DNA of 64,000 bases. Origin: Dictyostelium discoideum. Taxonomy: Eukaryota. The stretch spans positions 4,352,001-4,416,000 of the forward strand of contig CM000152.2 of the NCBI GenBank assembly GCA_000004695.1. Reading direction: 5' to 3'. Positions 22,905-61,447 of the stretch are shown one piece after another; the stretch's first letter is position 1; each line of letters starts with the position of its first letter. The notes beneath the pieces are model-generated. The model saw nothing but the letters and a program-made list of their open reading frames with translations, searched no databases and was not told where the DNA came from. The position numbers and the translations under genes were made by a program.

Positions 22905-22954
<50 letters not shown>

Positions 22955-24037: not shown

Positions 24038-24706
24038 ATGAAGAGGTTCTTTTCGAATCTCTTTAAGAGAAAACAAGACCAGAATAGTCATATTAAACAA
24101 ATAAATGGGCCAACAACATCAACTCCTACAACAACTCCTACAACTCCTACAACTCCTACAACAACTCAAACACCAACGCCACAAAATAATAATACAAATA
24201 ATAATACAAATAATAACAACAATACAAATAGTAATAATAGTAACCAACAAAAGAAAGAACAAGCACAAGCATCACCATCAACTAATCAAACACAAACACC
24301 ATCTAATAATACAATATCAACATCTCCAACTGTTACAACACAACCAAGTTTCACACCAGGTGTTATAAGTACATCAAAACTTACAACATCACCACCAGAA
24401 AGTCCAAGACCACCAACTTCAACAACTAATACTACACAACCATCAACCACTACAACCACAGCTACTAATAGTACCAATACAAACACAGCATCAGCACCAA
24501 CTAAAACAGCATCTCCAAGCTCACCAAGTGCAACAGCTTCACCAAATAATAATAGTAATAATACAACTACTACTGCTGCAACTACTACAACTACTACAAC
24601 TACTACAACCACTACAAATGCAAATCAAACAGCAAGTGTTAATCACACTAGCAGTGACCAATCATTAAATGCTCAAAATGTAACACAAACAAATAATAAC
24701 AACAAC

Positions 24707-24737
<31 letters not shown>

Positions 24738-26565
24738 CAAATAATACAAAACCAATTAATCCAAATGATTATATTCCATTGGATTTTGTGGATTCTACAC
24801 CAAAAGTTGATAACAATCAACCAAAAAGAAAAGCAAGTGGACCACCAGAAATTTTACCAGAAGAAATTGATAGAACTGATTTCCTTGGTCAAGGTTCATT
24901 TGGTTCTGTATACAAAGGAAAATGTCGTGGTCAAGAAGTAGCAGTTAAAATTCCAAGAAAACAAAAACTTAGTTTATATGAATTAACTAGTTTTAGACAT
25001 GAAGTTAAAATTATGAGGTAAGGGTTTATTATATATAAAAAAAAAAAAAAAAAAAAAGACCATTTTTTTATTAATTCTTTTTTTTATTTTTATTTTATTT
25101 TTAAAAATCAATTAGTAAAATCTTCCATCCAAATGTAGTATTGTTTTTAGGTGCTTGTACACAATCAGGTAAAATGCAAATTGTTACAGAACTTTGTCAA
25201 ACAGATTTAGAAAAGTTATTACATAATGATCGTACCAAAAAGGAGTTTAGTTTATTTAGAAGAATGCAAATGGCTAAAGATGCAGCATTAGGTATGAATT
25301 GGTTACATGGTATTACTAGAATTGTTCATAACGATTTAAAAACAGCAAATCTCTTGGTAGATATTAACTTGCGTGTTAAAGTAACTGATTTTGGTTTCAG
25401 TCAAATTAAAGAAGGTGAAGAATTTCAAGATAAAGCAGCAAAAGGAACTCGTAAGTTTTAAAAAAAATTTTTTTTTTTTTTAATAATAATCATTTTTTGA
25501 TATTAACTATAATTTTTTTATTTTTTTATTTTAAAAATAAAAAGCATTATGGATGGCACCAGAAGTTATGATGGGTAATCCATATAATGAAAAAGCAGAT
25601 GTCTATAGTTTTGGTATTATTTTATGGGAAATTTTAACAAAGGAAGCACCATATTCACATCATAAAGATTACGATATTTTCTTTAATGCAATTTGTAACG
25701 AGAAAGAGAGACCACCAATTCCAGCAGATACACTTCCAAGTTTACGTCATTTAATTCAAACATGTTGGGATCATAATCCACAAAATAGACCATCATTTAG
25801 CGAAATCTTATTCAGATTGAATGAGATTTTAATCGATTGTGCAATCGATTTCGACGATGGAAGAAAGTATTGGAAAGAACATTTCTTAGTACCAAAACAA
25901 GAATTACAAGAGGAGGTTGAATGGTCAGACTTTGAAAAAACTTTGAAAGCCACTCACAAACAATTAAATCTCGATTATGCTCCACTCAAAGAGTTACTCG
26001 TTCAACAATCTCATCAAACTGTTCAAAAAACTAAACAAGTTGTCACTATGGAAAGATTTGATAAAGTTAGTAAATGGTTTGGTTCTTTCTTTGAACCAAA
26101 TACTGGTATTGAAACTATTGATAATGTATGTTTTCTTTTTTTTATTTTTTTTTTTTTTTTATATAAATATTTTATTAATATTGGTTTCTTTTTTTTTTTT
26201 TTTTTTTAAAAAAATAATAAAAATAGATTAATAAATTATCAGCAAAAATTTGGTTCCATGGTGATATTGTAAGAGAACAAGCAACATCTAGATTATCAAA
26301 AGCAGCTGAAGGAGCATTTTTAATTAGATTATCATCAACCGAACCAAAGACATGTCCTTTCACATTGTCAATGAAAAATAATCAACACCGTAGAATTCAA
26401 TTGATCGATGAAAATAATTTTACAGGTTTTAAGATTCAAGGAAAGACAGCAGTTTACAATAGTTTAATAGAATTGGTCGAAAAATGTAATGACTATCCAT
26501 TATTAGTACCTTGTCCAAAATTCACACAAGAAACTTTTAATCCTTATGATCCTTATACAAATTAA
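24038..26565 (+). CDS. Protein kinase with a C-terminal SH2 domain (Dictyostelium shk family, TKL-like), four exons, about 744 aa
   Basis: join(24038..25017, 25116..25450, 25545..26125, 26227..26565). Exon 1 is a T/P/N-rich N-terminus followed by the kinase start GQGSFGSVYKGKCRGQEVAVK..EVKIM. Its junction R|S restores SKIFHPNVVLFLGAC. Exon 2 carries HNDLKTANLL...VTDFGFS. Exon 3 carries ..GTPLWMAPEV...DVYSFGIILWEILT.... Exon 4 is an SH2 domain (WFHGDI...AFLIRLSS...). All junctions are GTAAGx/GTATGT...AG and in phase. I could not determine which shk paralogue this is. Confidence 0.8.
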
Positions 26566-26870
26566 AATAATAATAATAAAAATAATATTTATAAAAAATA
26601 ACAACAATAACAATAATAATAAAATAATAATAATAATAATAATCAACATTAAAAAAAAAATTGTAATACCACATTTTTATTTTAATCAATCAAAAAAATA
26701 TTTGTTTTTTTTTGAATCCACTGACCAACAATAATAAAAAAAAAAAAAAAAAAAAAAGAAAAAATTTTTAAAAAAGAAATAAAAAAAATAAAAAACAAAT
26801 AAAAATAATAAAAAAAATTAATATATAATTAATAATATTATAAAAGAAAATTATGTGCATTTGATTTTTC

Positions 26871-26907
<37 letters not shown>

Positions 26908-27228
26908 TAGTAAAAGATAATTTGTCCAGCTGGCTTTTTTTGAATTTTCGATAATTACTGTCTTTTGACCAAGGCTTCCAAAAATATATTTTCTCATTTT
27001 TTTGAGATATCCATATAATTTTTTTAATATAAAATGATGGAGAAAAAAAAATTAAAATATTGACTGAATAAAATAAATAAAATAAATAAATATATAAAAT
27101 AAAATAAAATAGAATAAATATATATAAAATAAACATAAAATAAAAATTAAAATAAAATAAAATAAAATAATAAAATAAAATAAATTAATAAATAAAATAA
27201 ATTAATAAATAAAATAAAATAAATAAAA

Positions 27229-27569
27229 ATGGGATTTTCAGAATTAAAAACTAAAACTACATTTAAATTTGACTTTTTTGATAATTTCTTTGATAAAGAA
27301 AAAAGAGAATTTTTAAGAGAATGGACAAAGAAAATTCAAGAGGCATTTAAAATTTTCATTCAAAAATTAAAACTAACTTCTAAATGGGTAGATGAAAATA
27401 TTGTGAAACCAATTTTACTAAAACTTACAGAGTTATGGCAATGTTCATATGCAATGATTCAAACATCAACAGTTTCCAGACATGAATATTTTGAATTACA
27501 ACAAGAATTCAATAAAGAGGCTGAAAACTTATTAAAAAGATTTGAAGAAAAATTAGAAGAAAAGCAAAG

Positions 27570-27615
<46 letters not shown>

Positions 27616-27825
27616 AAACAAAAACATAACAAACAACAAAAACAACAACCACAACCTCAACAACAACAACCACAACAACAAGAACAACAAGAACTACAAG
27701 AAATGCAACCACAATATTCAAATCATTACAAAGATGAATCCAGACCGGAAGATTATTATCAACAAGATCAAGAACAATATTATAAACAAGAACCTCAACA
27801 ACAATCAAATAAAAAACTTGACTAA
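27229..27825 (+). CDS. Hypothetical coiled-coil/polyQ protein, single exon, 198 aa
   Basis: The ATG ORF encodes MGFSELKTKTTFKFDFFDNFFDKEKREFLREWTKKIQEAFKIF...EKLEEKQR(Q)n.... A (CAA)n run encodes about 20 Q. No family was recognised. An (AAATAAAAT)n-like tandem repeat at 27060-27225 precedes it. Confidence 0.5.
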
Positions 27826-28249
27826 AAAAATTATTTTAAAAAAAAAAAAAGAATAAAATTCCTAAAATGTTTAAATTTAAATTTTAACTTCAAGAATTAT
27901 TTTTTTAAAAAAATGAAAATAAAATCTAAGGTTGGCCAGATCTAAAAATTTCATAACTATTTATGAAAAGTAATTTTATGCTAACCTGGTGGCCTGTTTT
28001 TTTTTTATTTTATTTTTTATTTTCTGTATTGCCCCTTATTAAAAAGTTAAGGACTACATTTTTTAAAAAACTTTTTGGAGAGCTGGATTTTTTTTTATTT
28101 TTTTTTTTAAGTGTTGATTTTATAATTTTATTTGAAAAATAATCAAAAAAAAAATCTTTTTTTTTAATTTTTAACAAACCAAATAGATTTCTTTTTTTTT
28201 TTCCTTTTTTTTTTTTTTTCCTTTTTTTTTTTTTTTCTATTCTCTTTTA

Positions 28250-28301
<52 letters not shown>

Positions 28302-28439
28302 TTTTCATTGATATTCAATATATAAAATATTCATTGAGTAAAAATAATTTGTTATTTGTTAATAATGTTTCAAAACAAAATATCTTTGGTAAATAATATT
28401 TTTTATCTGAAATATAATATATAAAATATTTTAATTATC

Positions 28440-30990
28440 TCTAAAAAAAAAAAAAAAAAAAAAAAAAATGTTTATAGGTCGTGATGGATCAAAAGGACAT
28501 GATGAAATGGTATTAATGGTAAAAAAGGTGTCGATGGTAAATATACAATACAAATATTTGATTATGAGGGTGTTAAATTTAATAGTTCACCATATGATTT
28601 AATGGTGGAAGAGATTGGATAAATTGATAGAATAGGTTATAACGTAATTGAACCAGATTCAGATGTAACTTTAATGGTAAAGCATAAAAATGTGGGAGGA
28701 ATGCCAACACCATCATACCAAAATATTATGACATACGTCGATGATAATAAATGGGTATTCTGTGATCCAGTTAATAGAGTTGCATTTGATAAGTCAATTT
28801 TACAGGGTGCAGCTTCAAGAAATAAAAGAAATGAATTTAAAATCACAGATTTTAAACAAAATCCAAAATCATTACCAAGAGATCCATTTATGGTTAACGC
28901 AACAATGGACCATCAATGTTTAGTTGACCGTATCAATCAAAGCTTCAAGACAATTTCAGATAAGAAATCAAATTTTATTATTGAGTATCCAATTCAAACT
29001 TCATTAATTAAAGGTTTAAATAGTATTATATTAGGTGATGAATCACCATTTGTATTTAGAATGGGTTATATTCACATGTCGAAATGATTGGACCATCGGA
29101 ATTAAAATTCTTTTCAGGTACAATTTCATTTATAAACCCAAATATAAAACCATATACAAGAATTTTATTAGAATCAACCATATATTTAGGCCATGTTAAT
29201 AATATGATGTCTCCATTACCAATTCAATCAAGACCATTTGAAATTCAATTATCAGAGTGTTATTTACCAAAATCTATATTTCAATGTGATCTATTACTGG
29301 TTGTAAATAATCAAAGTGATTATAATGAAATTAAAAGTTGGAGAAAATTAGCAAAAAGTTTAAAGTTAAAACTAAATATTTGGAATACTAGTCTTTATAG
29401 AGCTTTTAATTTATCTCATGTTAAAATGGATGGAAAATCATTATTGGAAGATTTTCGTGGTAAAACTATATTTTTTTATATAATAGTTTTTAAAAGATGA
29501 ACTATTAACTCCACACGCTAATTTGATTAGACCTGATGAATTTTTTAATGCAGCCTACAATCATGGAATAAAGGTTTTAATCATTGGTAAAAGTTATTCA
29601 ATTGAAAGGGAAATTTCACCAATAAATACATTAGAGAAATCAACTACAGAGGCTTAATATCTAGATGATGATCATTTCTTTAAAACAATGAAATATCAAA
29701 TTCCAAATGGTTTAGGCACTGGTATTTCATTACCACCAATATTTGCAAACACTTTAAATGGTGATTTGGCAATTAATGCAATTGTAAATGGAAAAGAAAA
29801 TAATTGGATTGTAATTTTCAATGGGTATTATTTATTATCAATTTATAAAGAATCAATTTCATTATATCCACGTAAATCAATGGATTTAAATACAAACTTT
29901 GTACTTAGGAAAATTGATGAAAAAATCGATAGTGTTTCATTCCAATTATCAATTCCTCATTTAAACTTTGTTATTAACTTTTCAAAGTTGTTGGTAAAAA
30001 ACCAATTAAAATTTTAAATTTAAAGAGATTTTCATTGACAAGAGGTAATCAATTTGGTAATGAAAAATCAAGTCATGAACAGTGTTTTCAATTAGTTACA
30101 CCAGAAGTAACATGGTTTTTTAAATCTCAAGATCATTTTGAATGGGTTAGTAGATTATCACCTGAATATCAAACTTATTCTCAACCATCATCTTTGATTA
30201 AAGATCAAGTAATATTAGGTAAAGTTGATTCAAGAGGTGTTCATTTAAATGATGAATCTCCAATTATTGAAACTAGAACCATTCCAACCATCCAAGTAGT
30301 AGGTAGATATATTTTCACTAAACCAACCATTGATGACTTAGATAAGAAGTAGAAAAACAAGAAGAACGAGAAGTAGTAGATCAAGAAGATCAAGAAAAGC
30401 AAGAAGAAGAACAAGAAGAAGAAGAACGAGAAGTAGAAGAAAACCAAGTAGAAAAAGAAGAAGAAGAACAAGAAGAAGAAGAAACAATTCTTGAATCTCC
30501 AGAACCAATTGTTGATCATGAAAATCATTTGAATGGTTAGATCCTTTACCATTACCAATTCAATTGCAACAACAACAACAAGTTTATCAACCTCAAAGAA
30601 TTCAATTCAATTAAAGGAAACAAAAGATTTCGAAGATTCTTTACAATCAGAAAAACAAGAAGATTAATCATCATTATACCAATTTCGATTACAATTAGAT
30701 TCACCAAAAAGTTTAAAACAATTACTTGAAGACGAACCTGAAAACCAAAAAGAGGATAGTTTTTCAGAGGGTATCAATCAACAGCAATCAAATGACCATT
30801 TTCGATTAGATCAACAATTAATTAAAAATGAACAAAAAGAAAACCAAGATACCTTCTATGATCAACACTCCAATTAAATCAACAACCAACTCTAGAAGAA
30901 TTAAACCAATTGGATGAATCATTAAAACAAGAAGAAACAATCCAATTTGAGAAATCAATGGAACAATCCAAATAAAAGAAAATAAATAAA
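28440..30990 (+). pseudogene. Decayed protein-coding gene: about 2.5 kb of coding-like sequence broken by frameshifts and stops
   Basis: Composition is coding-like and not intron-like AT-rich. The longest stop-free segments are short and sit in different frames on the same strand (28674..29087, 29084..29500, 29688..30017, 30035..30352, plus acidic E/K/Q-rich segments at 30360-30540 and 30700-30990). No GT..AG introns with AT-rich interiors separate them. A short Gly-X-Y-like run (GRDGSKGHD|NGINGKKGVDGKYTIQIFDYEG) is split by a 1-nt frameshift near 28520. Confidence 0.55.
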
Positions 30991-31384
30991 ACTAAAATTA
31001 ATCCTAAAAACCATTTATTTAATAATCCATTTCCTTATTTTTTATTTTTTTATTTTTTATTTATACATTAAACACTCCAAAATTAATGGTACAAGTAAAT
31101 AGAATAGTAAGACAAAAAAAAAAAAATAAAGAAATAAAAAAAGTATTTTTTTTTTTTTTTTTTTAATAAAGTAATAATATATTGTTTGTTAATAGTAAAA
31201 AAAGTATATTATTATTAATTTATGTTTTTTTTTTTTTTTTTAGTTTTAGTGTAGTTGAAAAAGGTTATTTGTTGCAATTTGGTTTGGTTTGTTGTGTTTG
31301 TTTGTTTTAATATATAAAAAAGTTACTTGTTTGATTTTTTGTTTGTTTGATTTTTTTTTTTTTTTTTTTTTCTTTAAAATTTTA

Positions 31385-32595
<1,211 letters not shown>

Positions 32596-33821
32596 TTATT
32601 GTATTAAACAATAAAAGAATAAAATAAAATATAAAAAAAAAAAAAAAAAAAAAGTTAGTAAATATTTTCACTAAAACTGGTGAAAATAAAAAAATATCAG
32701 CGTAATTTAAATGTTATTGGTGAAAGAGGTGATTAAATATGTATTATATTGTTTTTATTATTGTTATTATTTATTTTTTTATTTTTATTTTTTATATTTT
32801 TATTTTTTTATTTTTATTTTTTATATTTTTATTTTTTCGATTTATATATATATTTTTGATTTTAATTTGTTTATTGATTTATTCGTTTTATTATTTTATT
32901 ATCACACTAATATTGTTTTTATAAAACTATTGTTTACCTGTATAGTGGATTTGTGTTGTTGTGAAAAATAAATAAAAATTATATTAAAAAAAAAAAAAAA
33001 ATTCAATTTTTTTTTTTTTTTTTTTTTTTTTGAATTTTTTTTTTTATTTTTTTTATTTTTTTTTTTTGAAATGAAATTTTTTAAAACCTGGGTTCTGGTG
33101 TAATTTATAACTTTGGGAGAAAAAAAGAAAAAAAAATAAAAAAAATAAAAACAAAAGAAAAAAAACAAAAAAATGCAAAATAAGCAAAAAAAACAATAAA
33201 AAAAAAAAAATAAAAAAATTAAACAAATAAAATATCAAATTCTAAAAAAAATAAATGTCTACTTTTTTTTTTTTTTTTTTTTTTGTGTGGGTTTTTTTTT
33301 TTGGTTTTTTTTATTTTTTTTTTTTTTTATAAATTAATTATTAGAATAGAATTCAATTCTGTGCAAAAATAGTTTTAATAAATAAATAAATAAATAAATA
33401 AAATTTTCTAATATTTATAAAAAATATAGTTTTTTTTTTTAATATGATTTTGATAAAATAAAATAAATTTTTATTTTTTTTTATTTTTTTATATTTTATT
33501 TTTTTCTTTTTTTTTCATCGATTTCTTTTCTAACATTAATTAAAATGTCAACGTGTTAACACACGAGATGTGTGGTGATATTAAAAAATTTTTTTTTTGA
33601 TTTTTTTTTTTTTTTTTTTCTTTTGTTTTTATTTTGATTTATTTTTTTTTTTTTTAAAAATCTTTTTTTTTTAAAAATTAATTCCAAATTTCCAAAACAG
33701 GACCAAATATTTTTATTTTGCCTGGATAAGTAAATAAAACAAATGAATTGTTGAGGAAAAATCTCAATTTTAATTTTTTTATTTTTTTTTTTTATTTTTT
33801 AATGTTTTATTTTTATTTTTT

Positions 33822-35295
33822 TTAAAGTGTGGGGTTTGAAGAGATTTTAAAAACTTTAAAATCAAAATTATCAGGAGCTTTCTTTGCAACATCACCCATA
33901 ATTGATTTCTTTTTTTCATTTGATTTATCACTTGCCAATTCATATAAAGAACAAATATTAAATATTAAAGTTTCATCAATTGATTTTTCATATTTTTGTT
34001 TTTGAGGAGTAGTAGTTTGAGTTGTTGGTGATGGATCAATTGGTGAAGTTTTCTCTTGAAGCACACCTTCCAATTCAGTGATAGCACCACCAAGATCGCA
34101 AGTGTATAACATTGAAATACATTTATTATTTATAGCAGCTATATTATTTGGTTCGATTTGAATTACATCTTCAAAATATTTAATAGCTGATGGATATTGA
34201 TCACTTGCAATTGAGTAAAATCCATGATTCATTAATGATAAAATTTTTAATGAATTATTTAAATTATTATTATTATTATTATCATTAATTGTATTTTTTA
34301 TAATGATATCAACAAATTTGAATATTTTTTCAGCACCTTTTAAATTACCCATTTGAAGATGAATTCTACCTAAAGCTGATAAAATGTAAATATCAGCTTC
34401 AAACTTTTGAATTAAATCCTCTAATATTTTAATTGCCAATAGGAAATCTCTATTCTTTTGAATTATAAAAGTCACAATTGAAAATATGATACGACGTTCT
34501 CTTTCCCTCCAAAGTGATAATAACTCTAACAATGATTGTAATGTATTACCACCTTGTTCAAAAATCTCTTCAACACTAATTGTACTTGAAATTGGTAACA
34601 TTGGTGTTGATGTATTATTATTATTATTATTATTACTACTATTACTATTATTACTTTCTTCAATTCTTGGTGATATTAATGATGCTGTAGTATTCTCTAA
34701 TTGTGATAAATAAATATTATGATTCTTTGATAATTCTTCTGATACGATTGTACTTGTTGATTTTTTAATTATATTATTATTATTATTATTATTATTACTA
34801 TTATTTTTACTAATAGTTTCATTTAAATTTTGAATTTCTCTATTTTATTATTTGAAATACAAAAAAAAAAAAAAGAATTAATATTAATTATAGTACAGTT
34901 TAAATATTATAATATATTTACTTTTTACAAATTGATAATAAAGCATATAAAGAATCTAATTGAAACTTTTCAGTATTTAAATGACAAGCTAATTCAGCTT
35001 TAATGATTCTCATTGAGAAAGGTACCATTGAACCTTTTTTACCAGGGAATAATTGAGGATAGGATTCATAACAATTCACAAGGTCTCTAATATCACCAAT
35101 ACCTTTAATTTCACTATCGGCTGCTGAATATGATCTCATTTTTACATGTGCAATAATTCTACATAATTTATATTGTAATATACTTTGAGGATTATTGGTA
35201 TTTGCTATACATAATTCTGCAACTTTAAATACATTATTCCAATTACCAATTTTCTTTTTGGGGATAAAATTAAATATTAATATAAATATATGAAA

Positions 35296-35363
<68 letters not shown>

Positions 35364-35835
35364 GTATTTTACATACAATTAATCTTTTTAAAGTTGTTTC
35401 ATCACCAACTAAACTTGAAGAATTTGAATATTGTGGATTTGGAAAGTAAGATATTGGTTGATGTTGTGGTAATGGTTGAATAGATGTACTACCAAATGAA
35501 TCAAAATTTGATACGGAGTTAGACATTTGCGATGCTTGTTTAAATCCACCATTTTGTGGTGTTGTTGGTGTTGTTGCTGTAACAAATTGATGTTGTTGTT
35601 GTTGTTGTTGTTGATTTGTTGGTTGTTGTTGTTGTTGTTGTTGTTGTTGTTGATTTTGTGATAAATTTGTAAATGAGTGTGATCTAGATAATGATTCATG
35701 TAATGGTGATTGTGATTGCTGTGATTGTGATTGTGATTGTTGTGATGGTTGTACAAAATTATTATTTACAATAGGTGAAGTACCAAAATTATTTGAGCCC
35801 CTATTCAATGTATTATGATTTGGTGGAGTGCTCAT
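33822..35835 (-). CDS. TPR-repeat protein with an N/Q-rich N-terminus (possibly a TRAPPC12/TTC15-like trafficking factor), three exons, about 602 aa
   Basis: complement(join(33822..34839, 34922..35253, 35377..35835)). Exon 1 reads MSTPPNHNTLNRG...polyQ...DETTLKRLI, with a GTATGT donor. The 123-nt intron 35254..35376 is an (AAT)n tract whose length is a multiple of 3 with no stop, which is why the track shows a read-through poly-L. Exon 2 reads KIGNWNNVFKVAELCIANTNNPQSILQYKL....LSICKK. A GTAAAT donor overlaps the apparent stop. Exon 3 carries TPR-like helices (..ALGRIHLQMGNLKGAEKIF.., ..DQYPSAIKYFEDVIQIEPNNIAAINNKCISMLY..). Family assignment is tentative. Confidence 0.65.
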
Positions 35836-35915
35836 TTTGTTTATATTTTATTTGTTTATATTTTATTTATTTATTTTATCTGTTTGCCAGTCTCAGCAAA
35901 AATTAATTAAATTTG

Positions 35916-35946
<31 letters not shown>

Positions 35947-36159
35947 TCAAAAAAAAATCTTTTTTTTAATAATTTTTTTTTTTTTTATTTTTTCAATTTT
36001 CAAAAAAAGGTTACCTTCTGTATTTTTTTTTATATTTTTTTTTTTTTTCCAGTATTTGGTATTTAATTACTTTTTTTTTATAAATCAAGTTTATAAATTT
36101 TTTTTAAAAAAAAAAAAAAAAAAAAAATTAAGAAAAAAAAAAACAAAAAAAAAATAATA

Positions 36160-39100
36160 ATGAATTTATCAACGTCAACAACAAATACACCAATAGTAAC
36201 AAATACAACAGGAACACCAACAACATCATCAACCGCAACATCAACAATAGAACATAAATCAGAATTAGAATCACTTGAAAATTATTTCACAGCATTACAA
36301 AAAGCAGTAAATGAAGGTATAAAATTAAATTATAATATCATTAGTAAATTTGATATAGTTTGTAATATTACACCATTATTTGAAGTTTTAAATAAACAAG
36401 AGGTTGACTCTATCACATTGAAATGGTTAAATCTATTAACAAGTTGTCTTGGTCAAGGTACTGGTGGTCCAGCTTTCTCATTAGTCATTGGTAATTTAAT
36501 TTCAAAATTATTTGATCGTTCACCAAATGGTAGTAAATCCTCAACTTCAATAGTTAAAAATTTAATAACTCAATTACAAACAAAACAAATACAATCAAAT
36601 TTAAAAATGTAATATTTAAAATATTTATTCAATATATATATATTTATTTATTTTAAGGTACTAATACTAAACTCACATTTACATGCATGCACAGATCAAT
36701 TATTGATGTTTTATCAATTATATTTAAAAATAGTAAAACATTAGCAATTGTTTATATTCAAGAGATATTAACGATATTATCAAAGATGGTTAAAGTTTCA
36801 AGTGAAACATCAGGATTTAAAGCATCATGTATGAGATGTATTGGATGTTGTTTAGATAGTGTTGGATATACTAGAGGTGCAATTCATGTGGATACATTTA
36901 AATTGATAAAAACCATCTATCCAATACCAGTTGGGAATAGTGGTGGTAGTGGTGGTGGTAGTGGTGGTGGTAATAGTGGTATTGGTCAAATGTCATCATT
37001 ACTTGCAACTAATAACGGTGTATTAGCAGCTGCCCAAGATTTTAAAATTGAATGTTTAAATTGTATTTTACCAATTGCAAAATATTATAATCAAAGTGAT
37101 TCAAAATTATCAGGTTTTGATGAAAAGATTCTAACTTTTCTTCAAAAGATATTAGATGAGGATTCTTATCGTCAAAGATATAAATTATCGGAAACTTTAG
37201 CATTGGTTTTATCAACATTTTATTCAAAAGAGCAACAACAGCAACAACAACAACAACAATCATCATCGTCACAACAAAATCAATCACAAAATCAATCACA
37301 AAACCAATCATCATTATCAGCATCAGGTAAAGATCAATCATCGGTATTATCATCATCATTACAGGGTATTCAAACAAATCAATCAAATGGTGCACTAGGT
37401 AGTGGTGGTGGGTCAATTAAGAAATGGTCAATTGAACAATGTTTAAATTATTTAAATAATTTATTAGTAACAACATTGGTAAATAAAAAAGATATTAGAA
37501 CCAATATTACAATGGGATATAGTATGTTTTTAAGGGAATTATCATTATCAGATATTGAACCATTAATTGATACTATTATTTCAACCATTTTAAAGATAAT
37601 TTCAACACCATTTAATAAATTCATTGGCAATTTATCATCAAATTCAACAGTTTCACCAACACCACAACAAATTAGTGAACAAATTCAATTTAAATCTTGT
37701 GTATCATATATAATTAGAACTGGTTTAGGTGAAAAATTAAGTGAAAATGGTCAGCAAAGAATGTTACGTTATTTATTAACTTTGGTAACTTCATCAACTA
37801 CAATACAATCAACAAGTACTCAGCCAACAGGTACTCAAACAACAGCCACTACAACATCATCATCATTATCAACAAGTACAAATTCAACTACAGCAATAAC
37901 ATCAGATTCAACATTAAATGAATTAATATTATATGTATCATTAAAAGAAAGTTGTTTATTAATTAATGAATTGGGTGAAGGTGGGTTGGGTGGTATAGTT
38001 GAAGATTATTCAGCACAATTGATACAATTATTCAGTGATCGTAATCAAAGTACAAGAGTATGGGCAGCAATTTGTTTAAGATCATTGGCAACTCATTTAC
38101 CAAAATATATTTCACAATTTTTAACAGAATGTTTAACAAATTTAAATAATTTAATTGGTGAGATTGATAAATTATCAATTCAACCCGATTCATTGAAAAG
38201 AATTATGAATTCATTAAAGGGTAATTCACAAGGTTGCGCAGCATTAATTTCAACTGTAAAGACTACGGAATTGGGTGTACCAGCGACATTGTTAAATCAA
38301 ATTACAAAGATTTCCTCATCGTTGTTGTCGAATCCAGATTTCCTCAATCCAGCTATTACATTGGCAAGATTGGAAGCAGGTTGGACCATTATGAATTCCT
38401 TGATCAAGTATATGGGTACAACATTTGTTGAATCGATATTGGTTAGTTTGTTTGGATTTTGGAAGAGTTGTTTCAATATTAGCACAGTTCATCCTACAGC
38501 AGAGAGGGATATAGTGATTTTTGCACGTACTAGAGCCGATGCATTAATACCCTTACATAGTTTAATAGTTTATAATAGTAAGTTATTGAATTCAAAAGTG
38601 ATTGGCACAATAGTTAATTTCTTGGGTAATACATTGAAGACCGTTAGTGAATTGCCAGCCATTAGTACATCATTTCAAAGTTCAACCAATGAATTAACTC
38701 AATTGTTAGAGTATTATTTAATTCGTACATTCTTGGCATTGCCAGCTCAATCATTTGCAACCCATCATACCACATTGATGACTATTGTTACATCGTTAAT
38801 ATTGGATGGTGTTCAAAATACAATGTTTCCATCATTGTTACATCGTGATGACGAGGATGTATTATTACCAGATTTGAAATCAAGTTATTATCAATTCGAA
38901 TTGAATTATCAAATACCATTCACAAGTCAAGATAGTTCAATGACATCATACACTGAAATCAATGATTGTTTCTCTCACAAGTTGACACAATTCTTAGAGA
39001 TACGTGTTGTAAATAGTGCCATCGAGTTATTCTCTTATCTATTCGTTAACCAACCAGATAGACATAGAACTCAATTGATTGATCATCTTTCAAATTGTAT

Positions 39101-42100
39101 TAAAGATACGAGTACATCGACCCTTCAAAAGAGTATTATGATAGTGAATTCATTGACAGCGATTCTATTCATATTAAAGAGTATGTCACATAATAATCAA
39201 CGTTTTGGAAAGAGTGATATTACATCGACTGTACAAAGATTCGTTCAAAAGTATTTTGGTGATGTCAATGCATTACTTCGTAGAATTTCTTCCGAGTCTT
39301 TAGGTCTACTATGTAGAATCGAGGGTGATAATGTAACGTCAGCAATCATTTCCTCGTTGACTGAAATCATTAGAAAACCAGCTAAAGAAGTACCAGTTTC
39401 AGTTAGAGCCGGTTCTGCATTTGTTTTTGGTTGTATTCAAAGATCAGTTGGTGGTATGATGTCTCAAAAATATTTACCAACTACAATTGCAAATTTACAT
39501 GTATTGGCACAAGATCAAATCTCACCAGACGTTAGTCATTATGCTTTACATTCATTGTTTGTCACAATTCAAACTAGTGGCTTTGATTTCACTTCATTCG
39601 CAGCGCCAACTCTAATGTTAATTCAATCATTATTAATCACCGAATCACCTCCATATTATCTATTGGGTAGAATTGTAAATTCAATCGTAGTTGCATTAGG
39701 TCCAGAATTTGAATCACTCAAAGATATCATGAGTCGTTGTAATAATACATGTTCAATCATTGAAAAGAGTACTGACCCATTGATTAAAGCAGAATCCATT
39801 TACTTCTATCAAAAATTAATCATGTTTGCTCCAAATTCAATAAATACCACCAAATTAATACCAAATTTAATTTCACAATTGAAAAGTCCCTCTCTATTAC
39901 TTCGTGTTGCCTCTGTAACTTGTTTACGTCAATTAATTCAAAAACGTTCAAATTTCCAATTAGATATTCAACCATTGTGTGAAACATTATTTATGATGAT
40001 TGATACTGAACGTGATTATCAATTACAAAAAGAATTAAAATTATTATTATTCACTTTAATTGATACCATTGGTCCTTCAAATCCTTCAACTTGGTTAAAA
40101 ATTTGTATGGCTATAATTTTATCTTCAAAACAAGATGATAATTTATTAGATTCTTCAACTTCACCGATTAATTTAAAACAAATTAATAATAATCCAAATA
40201 ATTCAAATAATACAGATAAACAACAACAACAAGAAGAAGATGATGAAGATTTAGATCAAAAAGTTGTTGTTGAAACATCAGAAAAAAAAATTGGATATGT
40301 TCATCGTTGGTTTACAAAAATATCAGCATTAGAATGTGTTAGAAGAGTTATATCAGTTGTTAGGGATGAACCAAAACATTTCAATATGGTAATTGCATCG
40401 AAATTACCAAATAAAAATGATTATTTAGTTTATCATTTACATAATTTAATTTCAATTTCTTACAAGGCAGCAACATCACAAATCGATTCAATGAGACCAG
40501 TTGGTATTTTATTGTTAAAGGATATTTTAGAAGGATTTTCAAAAGCTATCGATCCAGATTATGAAGGTCATTTATTGTTGGAATTATATCAAGCTCAAAT
40601 TATGTCTGCGCTTAGACCTGCTTTTGATCCTGGTGCATTACCAACTCAACTTTCAAATGCTTGTTCAGTGTTTGTTAGTTTCATTGACTCTGCGGTCTAC
40701 TATGATAGTGTTGCCATTAAAAAGGCTACAACCATTCTATCGAAACAAGTTAAAGATTTAAGAACTTTAAATTTCCCAATCTATAATGAAAAGACTACAA
40801 CATTGGTACAGGTTTCCATACTTAAAGCGTTTGCACAATTGTATTTATTATGTCTAAAAGATCAATCATTATACTCAATTCTATCATCAGTAATTAATCC
40901 ATTGTTAATTTATTTACGTGTACATTGGATAACTTTCCTAAAGGAATATTCAATGTTGGTTTCACAATCACCTCAAATCTTTCCATTATATAAACCAATT
41001 CTATTCTCACCATTAACTTATCAAGATAGTATTGAATATTTTAAAGATGCTTATCCATCAGTTATAAAAGCATTGAGTTATTTATTACATACTCCTTATT
41101 GGTTAATTGGTAGAGAAGATAGTAGTAGTGGTAGTGGTAGTAATATTAATAATAGTAGTGGTGGTAGCAGTGTTACAAATAGTTTACAATCATCAAGTAA
41201 ATTAATTTCAAATTTAACACCAGAAGAAAAAGAATTTTTAAATGAAACTAAACCATTTGATGATTTTTATTTAATTTGGGGTTTAGCTTTAATGCCAATG
41301 GAAAGATATTTGGAAGAATCAATCAATGTTAATTTCAATGTAAATTTGATTTCATCATCATCATTAGAGATTCTATCAATTTTATTCCAATACAATAGTG
41401 GTGAAAATGCTACAGCAAGTAATGTAGTTCGTTCAACAGTTGATGTAATCCCTTTTGATATGATTAAAATGGATAAATTCAAAGAGTTTTGTTCAATTTT
41501 ATTACGTATAAATACTTTTGAAAATGATCAAATTCAACTATTAATAATTGAAATTATTACAAATTTAATTTTAAATTTTGGTACTGATATTGAAAAATAT
41601 CAATCAAAACAACAATTATCAAATTCTTCTTCTTCTATTAAAAGTAGTAATGATAGTATAAATAGTAATGGTGGTAATAATAATAATATATTTGAATTAA
41701 TGATTCAAATTTTATTGAAACCATTAAATATAATCGATTTTTCTTCTTCAAGTGGTAGTAGTAGTAGTAAAAACTTTAATGAATCACAAGTTCAATATTA
41801 TAGTAAATTATATCAATTCTATTTAATTTTAATTAAATATTTCGGTCAAAATGTTGAACAATTTGAAAAGTATTGCCCATTATTCATTTGTACAATCATT
41901 AAAGGTTTATCTTGCTCAAATCAACCAAATTTAATCACTTCTTCAATTCAATTATTAAATCATATCATTAAATCTAGAAATCAATTCCCTGACTCAAACT
42001 TTTCAAATCAATTAAATTTAATTTTAAATACTTTATTTTCAAATTTAATTGATATTTTAAATAATGATTTGTAAGTTTAAAAACCTTTTTTTTAAAAAAA

Positions 42101-42973
42101 AATAATAATTAATTTTGTTAAATGATTTATTAATATATATATTTTTTTTTTTTTTTTAAAATTTAAAAAGACATGAAATTAAACAAGGATTTTTATTATT
42201 AATTCCAATAATTTTAGTAAATACGAATAATTTATCAAATCAATCATTTGAAAAATCAATAGATTTCTTTAAAAAGGTATTATCATCTACAACTACAACT
42301 TTAACAACAGAAACAGAAACAGAAACAGAAAAATCAATATCAATACCAATTAAGGATAAAGTTTATATTCTTCAAGTTATTAGAAATATAGTTAATACAG
42401 GTTCACAACAACAATCAACTTCACAAGTTTATCAATATGCAAAATTACTTGTTAAAAATTTATTTTCAAATTTCTTTAGTTTATTAATTTTCCCATCCCC
42501 AATTGAAACTACAATTTTTAAACAAGAAGAAATTGAATTAAACAATGAATTAATTAAAATAATTATACTTTCTTTACCATTTTCTGATGAAAATAATAGT
42601 AAGTTTTTTTTTTTTTTTTTTTAATTAATTTTAATATCTTATATAACTAATTTTTATTTTTATTATTATTGTTATTATTTTAGAAGCAAATGTATTATCA
42701 GTTATAATTTCTAGTTTAATTTTATTCCTTCAACCAAATTCAAAAAATCAAACTCAATTCCACCACAATGTACTCCAAATTTTATTAAACTTTGCTTCTA
42801 CACAACCTCAATTTAAAGAGGCAGTTTCAAGACTACCTTTAGATCTTAAACAACAATTAGAACAATCAATAAGACAAAATATTGAATCTGCTGCAAAGAA
42901 AGAGGTCAAAGTTGCTCCAAAACCTCAAATTCAATTAACTTTTGATTTCTCTAAAGTCGCTAATAAAGAGTGA
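36160..42973 (+). CDS. HEAT-repeat protein 5 (HEATR5B/Laa1/SWEETIE family, AP-1 adaptor accessory), four exons, about 2180 aa
   Basis: join(36160..36608, 36695..42070, 42171..42598, 42684..42973). The 1795-aa central ORF is helical-repeat throughout and has low-complexity S/T/Q/N inserts. The upstream 150-aa ORF joins in frame via a GTAATA donor and a cacag acceptor at 36694. Two 3' exons follow GTAAGT donors that overlap the apparent stops at 42071 and 42599, and the gene ends at the TGA at 42971-42973. The size and architecture match HEATR5 proteins. The first-intron boundaries are the least certain. Confidence 0.7.
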
Positions 42974-44599
42974 ACCCAAATAAAAAAATAAAATAAAATA
43001 AAATAATTTACATTTAAATCGATAAACAAATAAATAAATAAATAAAAAAAGTTGAATTTCTTGTAATATTTAATTAATTTGTTTTTTTATTTTATTTGTT
43101 AGTTTACTCCTTTTGCTATGTTGGGTATGTTTCTTATTTTTTTTTTGGGTGGTTGATTAGTTTTTGGTTTTCATTTTTTTTATTTTAGCACTGTCTATCT
43201 AGTTTTTCCACCTTTTTTTTTTTTTTTTTGAATAAAGATAAAATGCAAAAACATGAATTGATTAGAAGAGGATCGTTTTTTTTTTTTTTTTGATATAAAT
43301 AAACTATTGTAGTATACAATTAGTATGTTATTTTTATTTATTTATTTTAGGTTTTTTAGTTTTTGTGAATTTAAAATGGTATGTTATTTTAGATTAGGTA
43401 ATTAATAATTGATTGGTGGTGTAATTGTTGGAATTGGTTCATTTGTGTTTATGCTCCATTCTTTTTTAAATTTTTTGAAGGTTTAAATAATTACAGTTAA
43501 ACCTGTATTTTTTATATTGTGCGTTTTCTGCAAAATGAAAATTAATATTGATAGTTGGATCTGGTTTAAATGCTTTGTTGTTTGTTTGTGGTTTATAAAG
43601 GGTGTGTATAATTTTGTTGTTTGGTTTTTTGTTAGTGACCAGTTTTTGTTTCCATTGCAATTTTTATATATAAAATATTTTAATTTGTCGTGGTTTATGA
43701 AGTTGATTGTGTGCTGACAATTGAAAAACAAATGACCATAGGGATCATTATTCATTTCATTGTTGCAAATGGGGCAAACTTTGTTGTGTAGATGATTAAT
43801 CGGAAGACATCTAGTAAAGAATCTTTGCATTGTATCCAGGCCTTTTGGATCTTTTAATTTTTGAATTTTGACAAATAGTTGGTCGTATGTGTATTTCCAT
43901 AATAGTTGTATTGATTGTTGGTGCGAAGTAAGAGGTAGATCTGAATATTTCTTTCCAATATAGTCTTTTGATTTGCATTGGTGATTGTTGAGTATTGTCG
44001 AGTAGATTTCTTTGAGTGTTGGTGGTAGTGAAATATTATTTGTGGTTAATATTTGAGAGGTTTGGTTTTTTGTTAATATTGGTTGTAGGGTTTGAACTTT
44101 ATCTTTTAGATGTCCAATTTGAGTTGCATAGTTTTCCCATTCTTTTTTGATTTTTATAAGGTATGGAGAAGAGATTGATTTGTTGATGATTTGATCCATC
44201 CAACTTATCATGTATATTGAATTGTTTGCAGATTTATGCATATCCAAATCTTTTGAGCAACTTGTAGTAATTGTATATTCCACATACCCCAACCACCTTC
44301 TTTTAATGGTTTTAATGATCTATCATAACACATCAAAGGTAATTTTGCACGTGAATGGATGGTTGATGTGTTGTTTTCAATGGAATTGGTATTGAGAGTT
44401 GGTGATTCAGAATTTGCCGGAGAATTCATTAACCATGAGATTAATTTATTAATTTGAATTTCTTCATCTTTTGTAAATTCTTCAAGGTATGATAAATATG
44501 TTATTGGTGATAGTGAGTAGGTGTTTATGATGGTTGTTTTTGTTTTTAATGTTGTGCCACTAGTTTTCCATAGTACTAATGATTTATTCAGTGTTTTCA

Positions 44600-45820
44600 T
44601 TGTTTCTGGTAATTTCCTATGTAAACCATTATGATTAAAGAAATAGCCAAGGACTCTTTCTGATTGATATTTTTTGGTTATTGGTATTCTTTTTGATTGC
44701 GGAATGTTGTTTATTATGTGTTTATCTGTGATTTTGTGGGGGTTGATTTCTATTATTGCACTTTTGTCAAAATTTAATGATGATGATGTTGAAGCGCAGA
44801 AATTATCGAAATGTTTAATTGATTGTTGTTGTTGTTCGTAGTTGATGTTGTATGTTGCAAATTGGGTAAATTTGATTATAATTTGTGGATTGGGTGAAAT
44901 TGGTAATCCAATTATTGTATTGTCTGCATTTATTGTTCTTGCTAATATTTCAATTACAATTACAAATAAAGTGGCTGAGATTGGGTAACCTTGTTTTACA
45001 CCTCTTTTAATATCGAATTTTCTGGTCGTTTTACCATTAATTGAAATTTTTGCTTATGAGTCAGATAATAGCTTGTTGATTAAGTTTATTAATTTTATTG
45101 GTATACCAATATGAATTAATGTTCTTTTAATACTATGGTGAGAGATAGAATCAAATGCTTTAAAGTCAAATAGTGTGATGATATGAGGTTTTTAGATTTG
45201 AGGTAGTTGATTAATTCATTGATGTTGATGATGTTGTCTATGATGAATCTGTGGGGTACGAAACCAGTTTGGTTGTTGTTGATGATGAAAGGAAGTATTC
45301 TCAGAAGACGTGCATTGATTACTTTGGAGAGGATCTTGTAATCAGTGTTTAGAAGTGTAATAGGACGACGATTTGATATGAGTTAGGGGTTGCCTTTCTT
45401 GTATATTGTGTGTATAAGGCCTTCGGTGAATTCTGTTGTGATGTGGTGAGGGTTTTCTAGTATATCGTTGAATAATGTAGTGAAAATTGGTTTAACTTGG
45501 TTTAAATGATTAATGTAGAATGCATTTGTAACGCCATCTGGACCGAGTGATTTGTTGCAGCTTCAACTTCATCTTGTATAAATGGTGAGTCTAAACCATT
45601 CCAATATTCATTTTTTATGATGGGCCATGTGTTTAGCATGAGCTGGTGAGTAATTGGACAACATATTTGTAAGCTATATAGATTTGTGTAGAATTCAACA
45701 AAAGCATTTTCAATTTGGTCGGGGTCGGATGTAATGATGTTACCATATTGGATTGATTCAATTTTTGCATCTTTTGATCTTTTGTTTAGTATTGCTGATA
45801 GATACTTGCATCAATCCAAA
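44600..45820 (-). pseudogene. TRE3 ORF2 reverse-transcriptase domain, disrupted by frameshifts and stops
   Basis: Minus-strand translation gives LINE RT motifs (..FIINNNQTGFVPHRFIIDNII.., ..FDFKAFDSISHHSI.., ..KRGVKQGYPISATLF..). It needs at least three frame changes, and an in-frame stop lies near 45060. Confidence 0.6.
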
Positions 45821-45865
45821 CATATTAAAAAAACATATTAGGTATTTCTCCATTTATATGTTTTT

Positions 45866-46942
45866 TTAAATGGAGAAATACCTAATATGTTTTTTTAATA
45901 TGTTTGTGTGGTTTTGATGTAATTTGTTTTTGTTACATATATTATTGTATTCAGCGATGCATTGTTCTTCAAGATGTTTGAATTTTGCTGCTTTTTCTAA
46001 TGGTATTTGTTTTACACGTTGAGTTTGTTTGTCTTTGTTATATTGATAGTTTTTTAGAGTTTTAATAATTTTTGATTTTACTTTTGACCAATTTGAAAAT
46101 TGATTGATTGATGTGTTATTGTGATTAGTTATTAAATGATTGATAATATTGATTGCTTCATGGTCATTTGCAGTACCAGATGATAATATCCATCTTTTCT
46201 TATGTTTTTTTATTTGAAAAGGTGAAGAAATTGTTGTTGATACTGGATTATGATCTGATAATGAAGATGGAATTTGGTGGACTTGTGAATATATATTTTC
46301 AGGGTCTATTCTATTGTATTGAGTATATATTCTATCTAATCTGTTGCCATGTGTATGAGTTGGAGTGTTTTTAAATTCACCTTGATCAATTAGACGGTGT
46401 TGGTATGTGTAGGATTGGATAATATCATATAATAGTGAATTGTCGTTGTGGATACAGTTGAAATCTCCTGCGATAATAGACACATGTTGGGATTGGTTTG
46501 GTATTGGGTTTGTTGAGTGGATGTGGGGAAGTGTTTGTAGTGAAGTTGAATATGAATTCTTTTTGATGGTATTATTTGATGCTGGTGCGTAAATTCCAAG
46601 AATACCAATTGGTAATTGATTTGGAAATATAACGTCTACTAAAATAGCTCTACCATCAATTGTTGATATGTGTTTGAGTTTGAGTGTGTTTGGGTTATGG
46701 TTAAGGATGATTACACCATTTCCTCGTTTGGTGACAGAGATGATATGATCGGGAAAATCATGTTTAAGTTGTAATGGTGATGAATTGAGTTCAGTGAGAA
46801 TTGAGATTGTTGGACGAGGTGGAAGTTTTGATATAAGTAGTTGTAGTGTGTCAACAGCTTTTTGGTAGGAATTGTGTTGATTGTTTGGGTTTTCAGTGAA
46901 TCCTCTACAATTCCATGTTATAAAGTTGATTTTTGAGCTCAT
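45866..46942 (-). CDS. TRE3 ORF2 N-terminal apurinic/apyrimidinic-endonuclease-like (APE) domain
   Basis: The 358-aa ORF reads MSSKINFITWNCRGFTENPNN...ILTELNSSPLQ...IIAGDFNCIHND...HTHGNRLDRIYT..., the Exo-Endo-Phos fold of LINE endonucleases. It is truncated at its 3' end by the inverted duplication at 45821-45903. Confidence 0.7.
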   Translation of the reverse strand: MSSKINFITWNCRGFTENPNNQHNSYQKAVDTLQLLISKLPPRPTISILTELNSSPLQLKHDFPDHIISVTKRGNGVIILNHNPNTLKLKHISTIDGRAILVDVIFPNQLPIGILGIYAPASNNTIKKNSYSTSLQTLPHIHSTNPIPNQSQHVSIIAGDFNCIHNDNSLLYDIIQSYTYQHRLIDQGEFKNTPTHTHGNRLDRIYTQYNRIDPENIYSQVHQIPSSLSDHNPVSTTISSPFQIKKHKKRWILSSGTANDHEAINIINHLITNHNNTSINQFSNWSKVKSKIIKTLKNYQYNKDKQTQRVKQIPLEKAAKFKHLEEQCIAEYNNICNKNKLHQNHTNILKKHIRYFSI

Positions 46943-48310
46943 ACCTTACTAGGTTTGGCAGCACCAGTATTGACTGGTTGTGTAGTCAAGGCATTGCTGC
47001 TTCTTCTTGTATTTATTGTATTTGGAGTTGGTGCACTTGGTTTGTTTGGTTGAGATTGTAGAGGTTTTTGTGGTACAATTGTTGGATCGGTTGGATTGCT
47101 CATTGATAATGAGTTTTTCCCGTTATTATTATTTGAAGAATCACTTTTGTGTGAAATTTCATTATTGTTTTGGGATTGATTGTTAATATCAAGTGATTCA
47201 TTTAGTGTAGCTTTTGAACCACTATTTTGAAGTGGGTTATTATTGCGATTGGAACTTGCAATTTCGTTGATTGGTGGGGTGTTAATGTTGTTTTTAGGTG
47301 GATGATTGTTATTGTTAATATTTGGGTTTTTGAGAGCATTTTTTATAGTTGTTGCCATATCTGCATTTTTTGCATGTTGAATTTTGTGTTTAGTGACACT
47401 ACATGTTGCAGCTTTGATATATCTTGTGATACCAGATGGTTGTTCGATCTTTTGATCAACAATGTTGTGTGTGTGATCAATGTTATAATGTAGCTTTTAA
47501 ACGCAACAGCATATGAGTATGTGACAGTAAATGATTCAATTGATGTACAACTGGTGAATTTGGTGAGGTTGTTTATAATTGCATCGTTTGCATGTTTGGG
47601 TGAGTACGTTTGAATGAATGTTTTAATGATTGCATAATCATTTGATGATATTTCGAATCTATAGTTGAGTTTGTGGATATTTAGTGCAAGTTTGTTTTGA
47701 AGGTTGATTATTGAAGTTAATTTATCAACGTTGCAATTTACGAAGGCAGTTGCACCAATTATTTTAAATGCTGATGGCGACAGTATATCTTCGAAGAGTT
47801 TGTGAATGTTTTTGTGAATTTGTTGAATTCTTGTGTCATCTTTAGAGGTTAATTCTTCACGGATGTGTGGTTGATTAAAGTAACACTTAATGTTGATGGT
47901 GTTATTGTTTTTTTCTAAGAAGGAGAGTGGTCTTGTGATTGATGGAGGTGCAATGATATCTAATTGATTATCAAGTCCTTTGTTAAGTGAGAATTGATTT
48001 GTTGGGGTTTGTTTTTTAGGTGTGTCGATTTTTGCACTTTTGTTTTTTGTTGTTGAGGTTGTGGAGGTATTATTTGTATTGGTTGTGTCGTTATCTGAAT
48101 GATTTAACTGGAATTCAGTTGAGTGATCATCAGCCGTTGTTGAAAAGTATATAGGACGATAGCCCTTGCTTTATTGAGTAAAACTAGGGCAAAATTAAGT
48201 GGAATGAATGTGGTGGTGAAGATATAGCAGTGATTTATTTATTATATGAATAAATTCTTGTTTATTTCTTTGTTTCGTTTCTTTGTTTTGTTTCGGTTTT
48301 TATTTTTAGA

Positions 48311-48321
48311 AGAGGATCGAA
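48311..48321 (-). promoter_or_regulatory. ex-B box downstream of tRNA-Gly (GTGTTCGATCC on the gene strand)
   Basis: The B-box consensus lies about 35 bp 3' of the tRNA end, between the tRNA and the TRE3 5' end. Confidence 0.55.
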
Positions 48322-48355
48322 CACTTGATCTATTCAAGATTTTTTTAAAAATATA

Positions 48356-48426
48356 TGCGTATGCTGGGAATCGAACCCAGTTCGCATCCGTGGCAGGGAT
48401 GCATCATACCACTAGACCACATACGC
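48356..48426 (-). tRNA. tRNA-Gly (anticodon GCC)
   Basis: The reverse complement is GCGTATGTGGTCTAGTGGTATGATGCATCCCTGCCACGGATGCGAACTGGGTTCGATTCCCAGCATACGCA. The anticodon stem CATCC/GGATG encloses the loop CTGCCAC. It is identical to the second copy at 61344..61414. Confidence 0.9.
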
Positions 48427-48470
48427 TTTTTTTATATTTCTGAAAAAAATTTACCAAAATTTATGTCGTA

Positions 48471-48922
48471 ATGGGGAATAAAATCAACAGCCATTATCTG
48501 CGAAAACATCTGGAGAAGAAAATTCATGAAGGAATAACACTCAAAAACTTAAGAAAAGAACCACTAGTACACGAACTAAAGAAAACTCAAACAGCAGCCG
48601 GGAAAGAACAAAAAACAACATATACAAACTAATCAGACAAGAAAAAAAAGCAACCAATAACGAACAAAAAAAAAATTCAAAAACATCATCTCCCTGCAAT
48701 TCGAATGATTTAGCAAACACTGGAACTCACCACTACACACAGTAGCACTACCATCAAACCTCAATAAATATATTACATCATTCAACACACTCCGCACCCC
48801 CCAACTTTAAAAAAAAAAAAAAAAAAAACCATACAACCTTAAAAGGCACCTGTAATATTTAATAATAAAATGAGATATATCTCAAGAAGAAGCAACTAAA
48901 AATTGCGTTATTCCATCAAAAA
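48471..48922 (+). mobile_element. Short TRE5-like, poly(A)-ended non-LTR retroelement fragment flanked by a 15-bp target-site duplication
   Basis: A perfect direct repeat aaaatttatgtcgta occurs at 48456-48470 and 48923-48937. The 452 bp between them are not AT-rich. They start ATGGGGAATAAAATCAACAGCCATTATCTGCG... (a 53-codon ORF) and end ...gttattccatc(a)9 immediately before the right repeat. The insertion point is about 45 bp upstream of the tRNA-Gly 5' end, the characteristic TRE5 position of 48±3 bp. The element lies head-to-head with the tRNA. Confidence 0.65.
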
Positions 48923-49225
48923 AAAATTTATGTCGTATTTATAATCAGTCCTATAAAAAAACATTTAGTAATAATTGTTTATAATAAAATTAATAATACA
49001 TATATTACTTAAATAAAACCCGTACACATCCCTGGTTGGTTGAGGCCATTAAAAAGAAAAAAAATACTTTTTCAAAACTAGAATTCAACAGAATCACAAA
49101 AACAAACGGAAAAAAAAAAATAAAATAAAAAAAAAAAAAATAAAAATAAATAAATTTTTTTTTTTTTTCTTCTTACTAATTTTTTTTTTTTTTTTTTTTT
49201 TTCTACAATTTAAAAAAAAAACACA

Positions 49226-61343: not shown

Positions 61344-61414
61344 GCGTATGTGGTCTAGTGGTATGATGCATCCCTGCCACGGATGCGAACTGGGTTCGAT
61401 TCCCAGCATACGCA
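61344..61414 (+). tRNA. tRNA-Gly (anticodon GCC), second identical copy
   Basis: This 71-nt sequence is identical to the reverse complement of 48356..48426. Confidence 0.9.
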
Positions 61415-61447
61415 CAAATTTTAAATGCCTGATTTATTAGATCAACT

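Follow-up and report, generated by a model that had tools for sequence, protein, structure and literature searches.

In a 64-kb window of Dictyostelium discoideum AX4 chromosome 3 (the whole stretch of DNA analysed, and the space within which any repeat called unique below is unique), a single tRNA-Gly(GCC) gene was found to be flanked on both sides by retroelements, and we consider it very probable that these record two independent retrotranspositions guided by RNA polymerase III (Pol III) to the same target: a TRE3-family non-LTR (long terminal repeat) retrotransposon downstream (43276..48306, − strand, 5,031 bp, full-length but dead) and a TRE5 fragment with the layout of TRE5-C upstream (48471..48922, + strand, 452 bp). 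The integration target itself (48356..48426, − strand), which the original prediction had called from the letters, was recovered by both ARAGORN and the Rfam tRNA model (RF00005, 63.6 bits); it carries the internal B box GGTTCGATTCC at 48377..48367, is directly followed on its 3' side by a T5 run, and contains at 48359..48378 the published Gly(GCC) primer GTATGCTGGGAATCGAACCC (PMC3159450). Furthermore, an external B box (ex-B), belonging to the type of element described in PMC5911963, could be read directly from the sequence as GTTCGATCCTC at 48312..48322 (− strand), 33 bp 3' of the tRNA end.

The downstream element was identified through its coding remnants and its relatives. The reading frames of the interval 43400-48170 (− strand) returned, in a Pfam profile search, both an endonuclease (PF03372, E = 3.9e-12) and a reverse transcriptase (RT; PF00078, E = 9.7e-24), and these matches, together with relatives situated beside other tRNA genes, bear out the earlier suggestion of a degenerate TRE3-type LINE (long interspersed nuclear element; − strand) 3' of the tRNA. 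The remnant of the first open reading frame (ORF1) occupies 46939..48137 and that of ORF2 43402..46942 (both − strand), the latter comprising the endonuclease (~46250..46921), the RT (~44726..45400) and a zinc knuckle of the form CX2CX12HX4C (43717..43776, − strand), so that the order of domains (AP endonuclease, reverse transcriptase, zinc finger) is the one expected for TRE3. The conceptual ORF2 product shows 94% amino-acid identity to an intact 1275-aa D. discoideum ‘pol’ protein (P0001), whose 90%-identity cluster also contains the GenBank ‘pol’ entry AAD43057.1/Q9Y1H5. For comparison, five further loci carrying the same TRE3-type family were extracted from the D. discoideum assembly GCA_054883475.1 (loci are cited by handles such as L001, and single copies as L001a). 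Over ungapped columns, the window copy is 97.4% identical at the nucleotide level to two younger copies (L001a and L002a), which are themselves 99.3% identical to each other; L002a is intact (ORF1 402 aa, ORF2 1275 aa, ATGA overlap). At four other loci, copies of the family lie ~50–75 bp 3' of tRNA-Phe, -Lys, -Thr and -Gln genes, in the same orientation as the tRNA and with an ex-B in between, and the window copy likewise shares the orientation of its tRNA gene (both −). Both flanking segments were thus found to resemble TRE families (97.4% identity to the TRE3-type copies on the one side and, as detailed below, a C-module homologous to the TRE5-A type on the other), and neither element has another copy within the window.

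The limits of the TRE3 copy follow from homology and from a bracketing repeat. Seven other copies remain homologous to it only as far as the A16 tail (43276..43291); on the 5' side homology reaches at least to 48293, and the first bases of the element (AAAATAAAAACCGAAAC...) match the complete 5' ends present in L005 and L002. Moreover, a perfect direct repeat of 13–14 bp (TTAGAAGAGGATCG) occurs at 43262/3..43275 and 48306/7..48319 and nowhere else in the window. On the strength of these homology limits and of the bracketing duplication, the element therefore spans 43276..48306. The tRNA-proximal copy of the target-site duplication covers 48307..48319 (+ strand: TAGAAGAGGATCG; 14 bp with 48306 included), and the distal copy (43263..43275), which adjoins the poly(A) tail, holds a partial copy of the ex-B. 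These ends correct the original prediction, in which the element ran from 43075 to 48235 (about 5.2 kb), starting about 120 bp 3' of the tRNA and just past the ex-B: its 5' end (48306) is separated from the 3' end of the tRNA (48356) by 49 bp, and its duplication takes in 8 of the 11 bases of the box, which remains intact on the tRNA side. An independent insertion in L001, 50 bp after a tRNA-Phe gene, has a duplication that likewise begins at the edge of the ex-B.

A state of this locus free of the TRE3 element was found in the sister species D. cf. discoideum (assembly GCA_054859235.1, locus L006, reached via the rhomboid orthologue), in which the stop codon of the HEATR5 gene is followed by ~260 bp of intergenic DNA, an ex-B (kept as GGTTCAATTCT at the corresponding place) and a tRNA-Gly(GCC) of identical sequence, with no LINE between HEATR5 and the tRNA. 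Once the TRE3 element and one copy of its duplication are removed, the window sequence aligns with L006 straight over the junction. The corresponding region of D. firmibasis (L007) shows no tRNA beside the rhomboid gene and is hence uninformative. The sister locus also bears on the longer extent proposed at first, according to which the element would end near 43075 and begin at 48235: the strong G/T strand skew that typically marks a LINE's antisense strand does extend to ~43075, and a further A17 run is present at 43213..43229. We nonetheless find this extent hardly credible, given that all seven other copies lose homology right at the A16 tail (43276), that alignment with other copies continues at the 5' end as far as 48293–48306, that the unique 13–14-bp duplication brackets 43276..48306, and that window positions 43055..43097 are colinear with positions 6910..6961 of the element-free L006, for which reason the additional 3' stretch is, at least there, plain intergenic DNA.

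As for the remainder of that stretch, the segment 43098..43262 is T/G-rich, holds the aforementioned A17 run (on the − strand), and matches neither the other TRE3 copies nor the intergenic DNA of L006, which at this place has the opposite strand skew; it may represent an older decayed insertion. An older truncated tandem TRE3 at 43075..43262 was considered as a candidate and rejected, as the interval is homologous to none of the copies and lacks a separate duplication, and its first part is orthologous to the element-free locus. On the other side of the orthologous tRNA-Gly(GCC), L006 harbors a different insertion of ~1.7 kb (7236..8967, 5' of the tRNA), a TRE5-A-like element possessing both a B- and a C-module, whose A-run is separated from the C-module by ~200 bp of (AAT)n array. 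Because its apparent duplication (AATTACCTTTT) sits ~440 bp from the tRNA, there may be another insertion between the two.

The upstream element had been delimited exactly in the original prediction (48471..48922, + strand): it is bracketed by a 15-bp direct repeat (AAAATTTATGTCGTA; tRNA-proximal copy 48456..48470, distal copy 48923..48937), for which only these two occurrences exist in the window. It lies 44 bp from the 5' end of the tRNA, in the orientation opposite to that of the gene and pointing away from it, and both retroelements thus have their 5' ends turned towards the tRNA, as had also been proposed. All of its parts are read on the + strand and consist of a body (48471..48808), an internal A20 run (48809..48828), a variant of the C-module (48829..48917, 89 nt) and an A-tail (48918..48922). 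Over its terminal 55–90 nt, the element shares homology with the ends of elements located ~46–50 bp 5' of tRNA-Phe (L001) and tRNA-Lys (L002), both of which are oriented opposite to their tRNA and possess a duplication of their own. The C-module of these two reference elements has C38, A35, C26 and T15 (counted from the 3' end, all within predicted stems I and III), exactly the four positions at which the published TRE5-A C-module was mutated (PMC3159450), and it is therefore assigned to TRE5-A.

Measured against this reference, the C-module in the window appears as a distinct variant. Its identity to the TRE5-A type amounts to 70–83%, depending on gap treatment, and a value of 78% has been published for TRE5-A versus TRE5-C (PMC3159450). 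Its terminal stem-loop region is shorter by 3–4 nt (published lengths: 51 nt in TRE5-C and 54 nt in TRE5-A), and the last 51 nt of the element are predicted to adopt a three-stem fold of −11.7 kcal/mol at 22 °C, as compared with published folds of −12.52 (TRE5-C) and −20.08 kcal/mol (TRE5-A) (PMC3159450) and with −16.9 to −19.7 kcal/mol for our TRE5-A-type 54-mers. Furthermore, TRE5-A-type 3' ends (L001, L002 and L006) contain a B-module of ~200–290 bp between two A-runs, which is 86% identical between the two species (L002 and L006), and when the B-modules of L002 and L006 were used as queries, the window element yielded no B-module and only a 27-nt A-rich match. As C-module ends are confined to TRE5-A and TRE5-C, the latter lacking the 3' B-module (PMC3159450) and being documented solely by 3' fragments no longer than 879 bp (PMC5006619), the combination of a C-module variant with no B-module leads us, on sequence features, to regard 48471..48922 as most likely a TRE5-C copy truncated at its 5' end. 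A TRE5-A copy truncated in the same way (TRE5-A being the commonest TRE5) would end in a C-module as well, and positions 48709..48828 of the body share 74% identity with the sequence preceding the first A-run in the TRE5-A-like element of L006; this identification nevertheless seems improbable to us, because TRE5-A-type 3' ends have the B-module that is missing here, because the C-module in the window differs by 17–30% from a type whose copies are near-identical among themselves, and because its shortened terminal stem-loop region is the one published for TRE5-C.

Several points weigh against the assignment of the two elements as given above. Within the upstream element, the first ~240 bp (48471..48708) match nothing in ~190 kb of other Dictyostelium sequence, and a 53-aa ORF at its start has no protein homologue at E ≤ 10; since the element begins exactly at the ATG of this ORF, these same features would suit an unrelated transcript that acquired a C-module and was retroposed by the TRE5 machinery. 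We judge such an origin very improbable, as positions 48709..48828 have a homologous counterpart ahead of the A-run in a TRE5-A-like element, as L002 contains the same C-module variant once more (20295..20405), and as an unmatched upstream part is to be expected when little reference sequence is compared for a family known from short 3' fragments. Moreover, the TRE3 and TRE5 subfamily names are supported by indirect evidence rather than by a Repbase, dictyBase or GenBank consensus, and the sole other D. discoideum assembly compared (GCA_054883475.1) has essentially the same genotype and is uninformative on polymorphism within the species. It is 99.956% identical to the window across 20.5 kb around the locus, and we infer that it derives from the AX2-214 strain of bioRxiv 10.1101/2025.08.01.668227.

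As between TRE3-A and TRE3-B for the downstream element, copy length favours TRE3-B and abundance favours TRE3-A. Full-length relatives measure ~5,275–5,287 bp without their tail, nearer to the consensus of TRE3-B (5,279 bp) than to that of TRE3-A (5,229 bp; formerly named Tdd-3). On the other hand, the family of the window copy is the most abundant intact TRE3-like family among annotated proteins, a dominance that would fit TRE3-A, called the commonest in the literature. A second D. discoideum family (~40% identical overall, 52–62% in the RT, and represented solely by broken gene models) probably makes up the other half of the TRE3-A/TRE3-B pair. For neither family did we find, by accession or gene identifier, a subfamily name in the literature, the protein clusters being titled ‘hypothetical protein’ or ‘pol’.

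Whichever subfamilies are involved, the TRE3 and TRE5 elements agree in position, orientation, oligo(A) tails and target-site duplications with the published rules for these families (PMC5006619, PMC5911963; distances and orientations tabulated in Table 1 of PMC5006619, orientation rule in PMC5911963). TRE3 elements have been observed 14–228 bp downstream of tRNA genes and TRE5 elements 34–95 bp upstream (PMC5006619); the insertion window of TRE3 is given as 40–150 bp (PMC5006619, PMC5911963), and published TRE5-C copies lie ~50 bp 5' of the tRNA (observed 38–95 bp) in opposite orientation. It is further reported that the ORF1 protein of TRE5-A binds TFIIIB and requires an intact B box, and that TRE3 inserts 3' of an internal or external B box (PMC5911963, PMC5006619). 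In the scenario that we propose, a full-length TRE3 would have entered 49 bp 3' of the tRNA, in the same orientation, via target-primed reverse transcription at a B-box/TFIIIC-marked site, with staggered nicks yielding the 13–14-bp duplication that starts inside the ex-B. The copy would later have died by accumulating 11 indels (among them a C-terminal deletion of 287 bp, the 12-bp loss of the YADD box and a 58-bp inverted duplication) and by losing its ORF1 start. Separately, a 5'-truncated TRE5 (body, A20, C-module and A-tail) would have entered 44 bp 5' of the tRNA in opposite orientation, creating a 15-bp duplication, with the TRE5 ORF1 protein presumably contacting TFIIIB as described in the literature. 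The poly(A) tails, the staggered-cut duplications and the fixed orientation and distance are consistent with target-primed reverse transcription at Pol III-marked sites, and it is from the literature that we infer both the targeting mechanism and the target-primed integration at this locus.

Set beside known systems, the downstream element shares with the TRE3 family (TRE3-A, TRE3-B) the two overlapping ORFs, an ORF2 with endonuclease, RT and zinc knuckle, the oligo(A) tail and target-site duplication, a position 49 bp 3' of the tRNA in the same orientation and with a B-box element directly upstream, and membership in the 90%-identity protein cluster of GenBank ‘pol’ AAD43057.1; it differs in being dead (11 indels, no YADD box, no ORF1 start). 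The upstream element resembles TRE5-C in its location 44 bp 5' of the tRNA, its opposite orientation, its nature as a short 3' fragment devoid of the 3' B-module and its C-module (~78% like that of TRE5-A), but its first 240 bp are unmatched in the Dictyostelium sequence compared. With TRE5-A (DRE) it has in common the targeting window, the orientation and a homologous C-module with a three-stem terminal fold, whereas TRE5-A possesses A- and B-modules (the B-module lying between ORF2 and the C-module), and the window element lacks a B-module and carries a distinct C-module variant. The yeast elements Ty3 and Ty1 and the Dictyostelium elements DGLT-A and Skipper-2 similarly use genes transcribed by RNA polymerase III as safe sites in a compact genome, but they are LTR elements that employ an integrase, not target-primed LINEs, and their distances to the tRNA differ.

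The decay of the TRE3 copy could be read in comparison with intact copies, relative to which it has 11 indels: a 15-bp gain within a short repeat of the 5' untranslated region, deletions of 10, 19, 4, 3, 12, 19, 1 and 287 bp (the last of them C-terminal) and two insertions of 29 nt each. The 12-bp deletion takes out the residues DDST of the catalytic YADD box (converting FTQFADDSTTYN into FTQFATYN), and the start codon of ORF1 has changed from ATG to ACG (48137..48135). A repeat search disclosed, at the junction of endonuclease and RT, a perfect inverted duplication (45817..45906; 40-nt arms with 100% complementarity and a 10-nt loop) that breaks ORF2 and that, by alignment with intact copies, originated from the two 29-nt insertions around an original 31-nt segment. 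The predicted hairpin folds at −53 kcal/mol (z = −15.3), and its arms are free of mismatches although the TRE3 is 2.6% diverged from active copies. It is conceivable, as a very long shot based on the letters, that the hairpin, if transcribed, might be diced into small RNAs acting in trans on the ~97%-identical active copies, in which case a decayed TRE3 copy at a tRNA gene would be a source of silencing.

The same remnant has given rise to gene models in both assemblies. In AX4, the model DDB_G0281357 (P0007, 503 aa; 45505..47358, − strand) was spliced out of the dead TRE3 by joining the tail of ORF1, the endonuclease and part of the RT, with the hairpin palindrome counted as an intron; because this model derives from an element in the window, the window was assigned to the AX4 locus. 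In the AX2-like assembly, a 1241-aa model (P0110) lies on the same TRE3. Both models are pseudogene artefacts of a dead retrotransposon, which makes the locus useful for annotation correction (DDB_G0281357 and its AX2 counterpart).

Related insertions at the other loci show further arrangements of the same families. In L001 (571..11130) and L002 (4326..14160), two TRE3 copies stand in tandem behind one tRNA gene, their nested duplications showing sequential targeting of the same ex-B site, and in both loci the same tRNA has a TRE5-A-type element upstream as well. L003 contains a TRE3 copy (~6980..13460, duplication ATCATCATTTC) inside a polyketide-synthase-like gene (ketoacyl-synthase model 5668..7132); ARAGORN called no tRNA in this 23-kb locus, and a B-box-like sequence (GATCGATTC) is found ~70 bp upstream of the insertion, so that, from sequence, the copy seems to have inserted off target, at a B-box mimic. 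A nest of TRE5 pieces in L002 (20295..21100, − strand), with no tRNA called up to the end of the locus, comprises a TRE5-A.2-like copy (the start of the endonuclease joined to the end of ORF2, followed by a B-module and a C-module), then a 74-bp fragment with the window-type C-module variant and lastly A-module-like sequence.

Within the window, the other tRNA genes are a tRNA-Phe(GAA) (1450..1523, − strand) and a second tRNA-Gly(GCC) (61344..61415, + strand), around which neither a member of this TRE3 family nor a C-module was found. The protein-coding neighbours of the locus, as named in the original prediction, are a HEATR5-like gene (PF20210, 1.2e-50) and a rhomboid gene (PF01694, found in its orthologues).

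At least one TRE is present at 61% of the tRNA genes of D. discoideum, and both TRE5 and TRE3 at 13% of them (PMC5006619), so that the description of this locus as a special natural experiment was overstated: the locus is ordinary and of a known kind, and it adds nothing new on Pol III-guided integration. Its value is that of a clean and fully bounded example, in which one tRNA gene offers both duplications, the corresponding empty site of a sister species and a dated series of decay.

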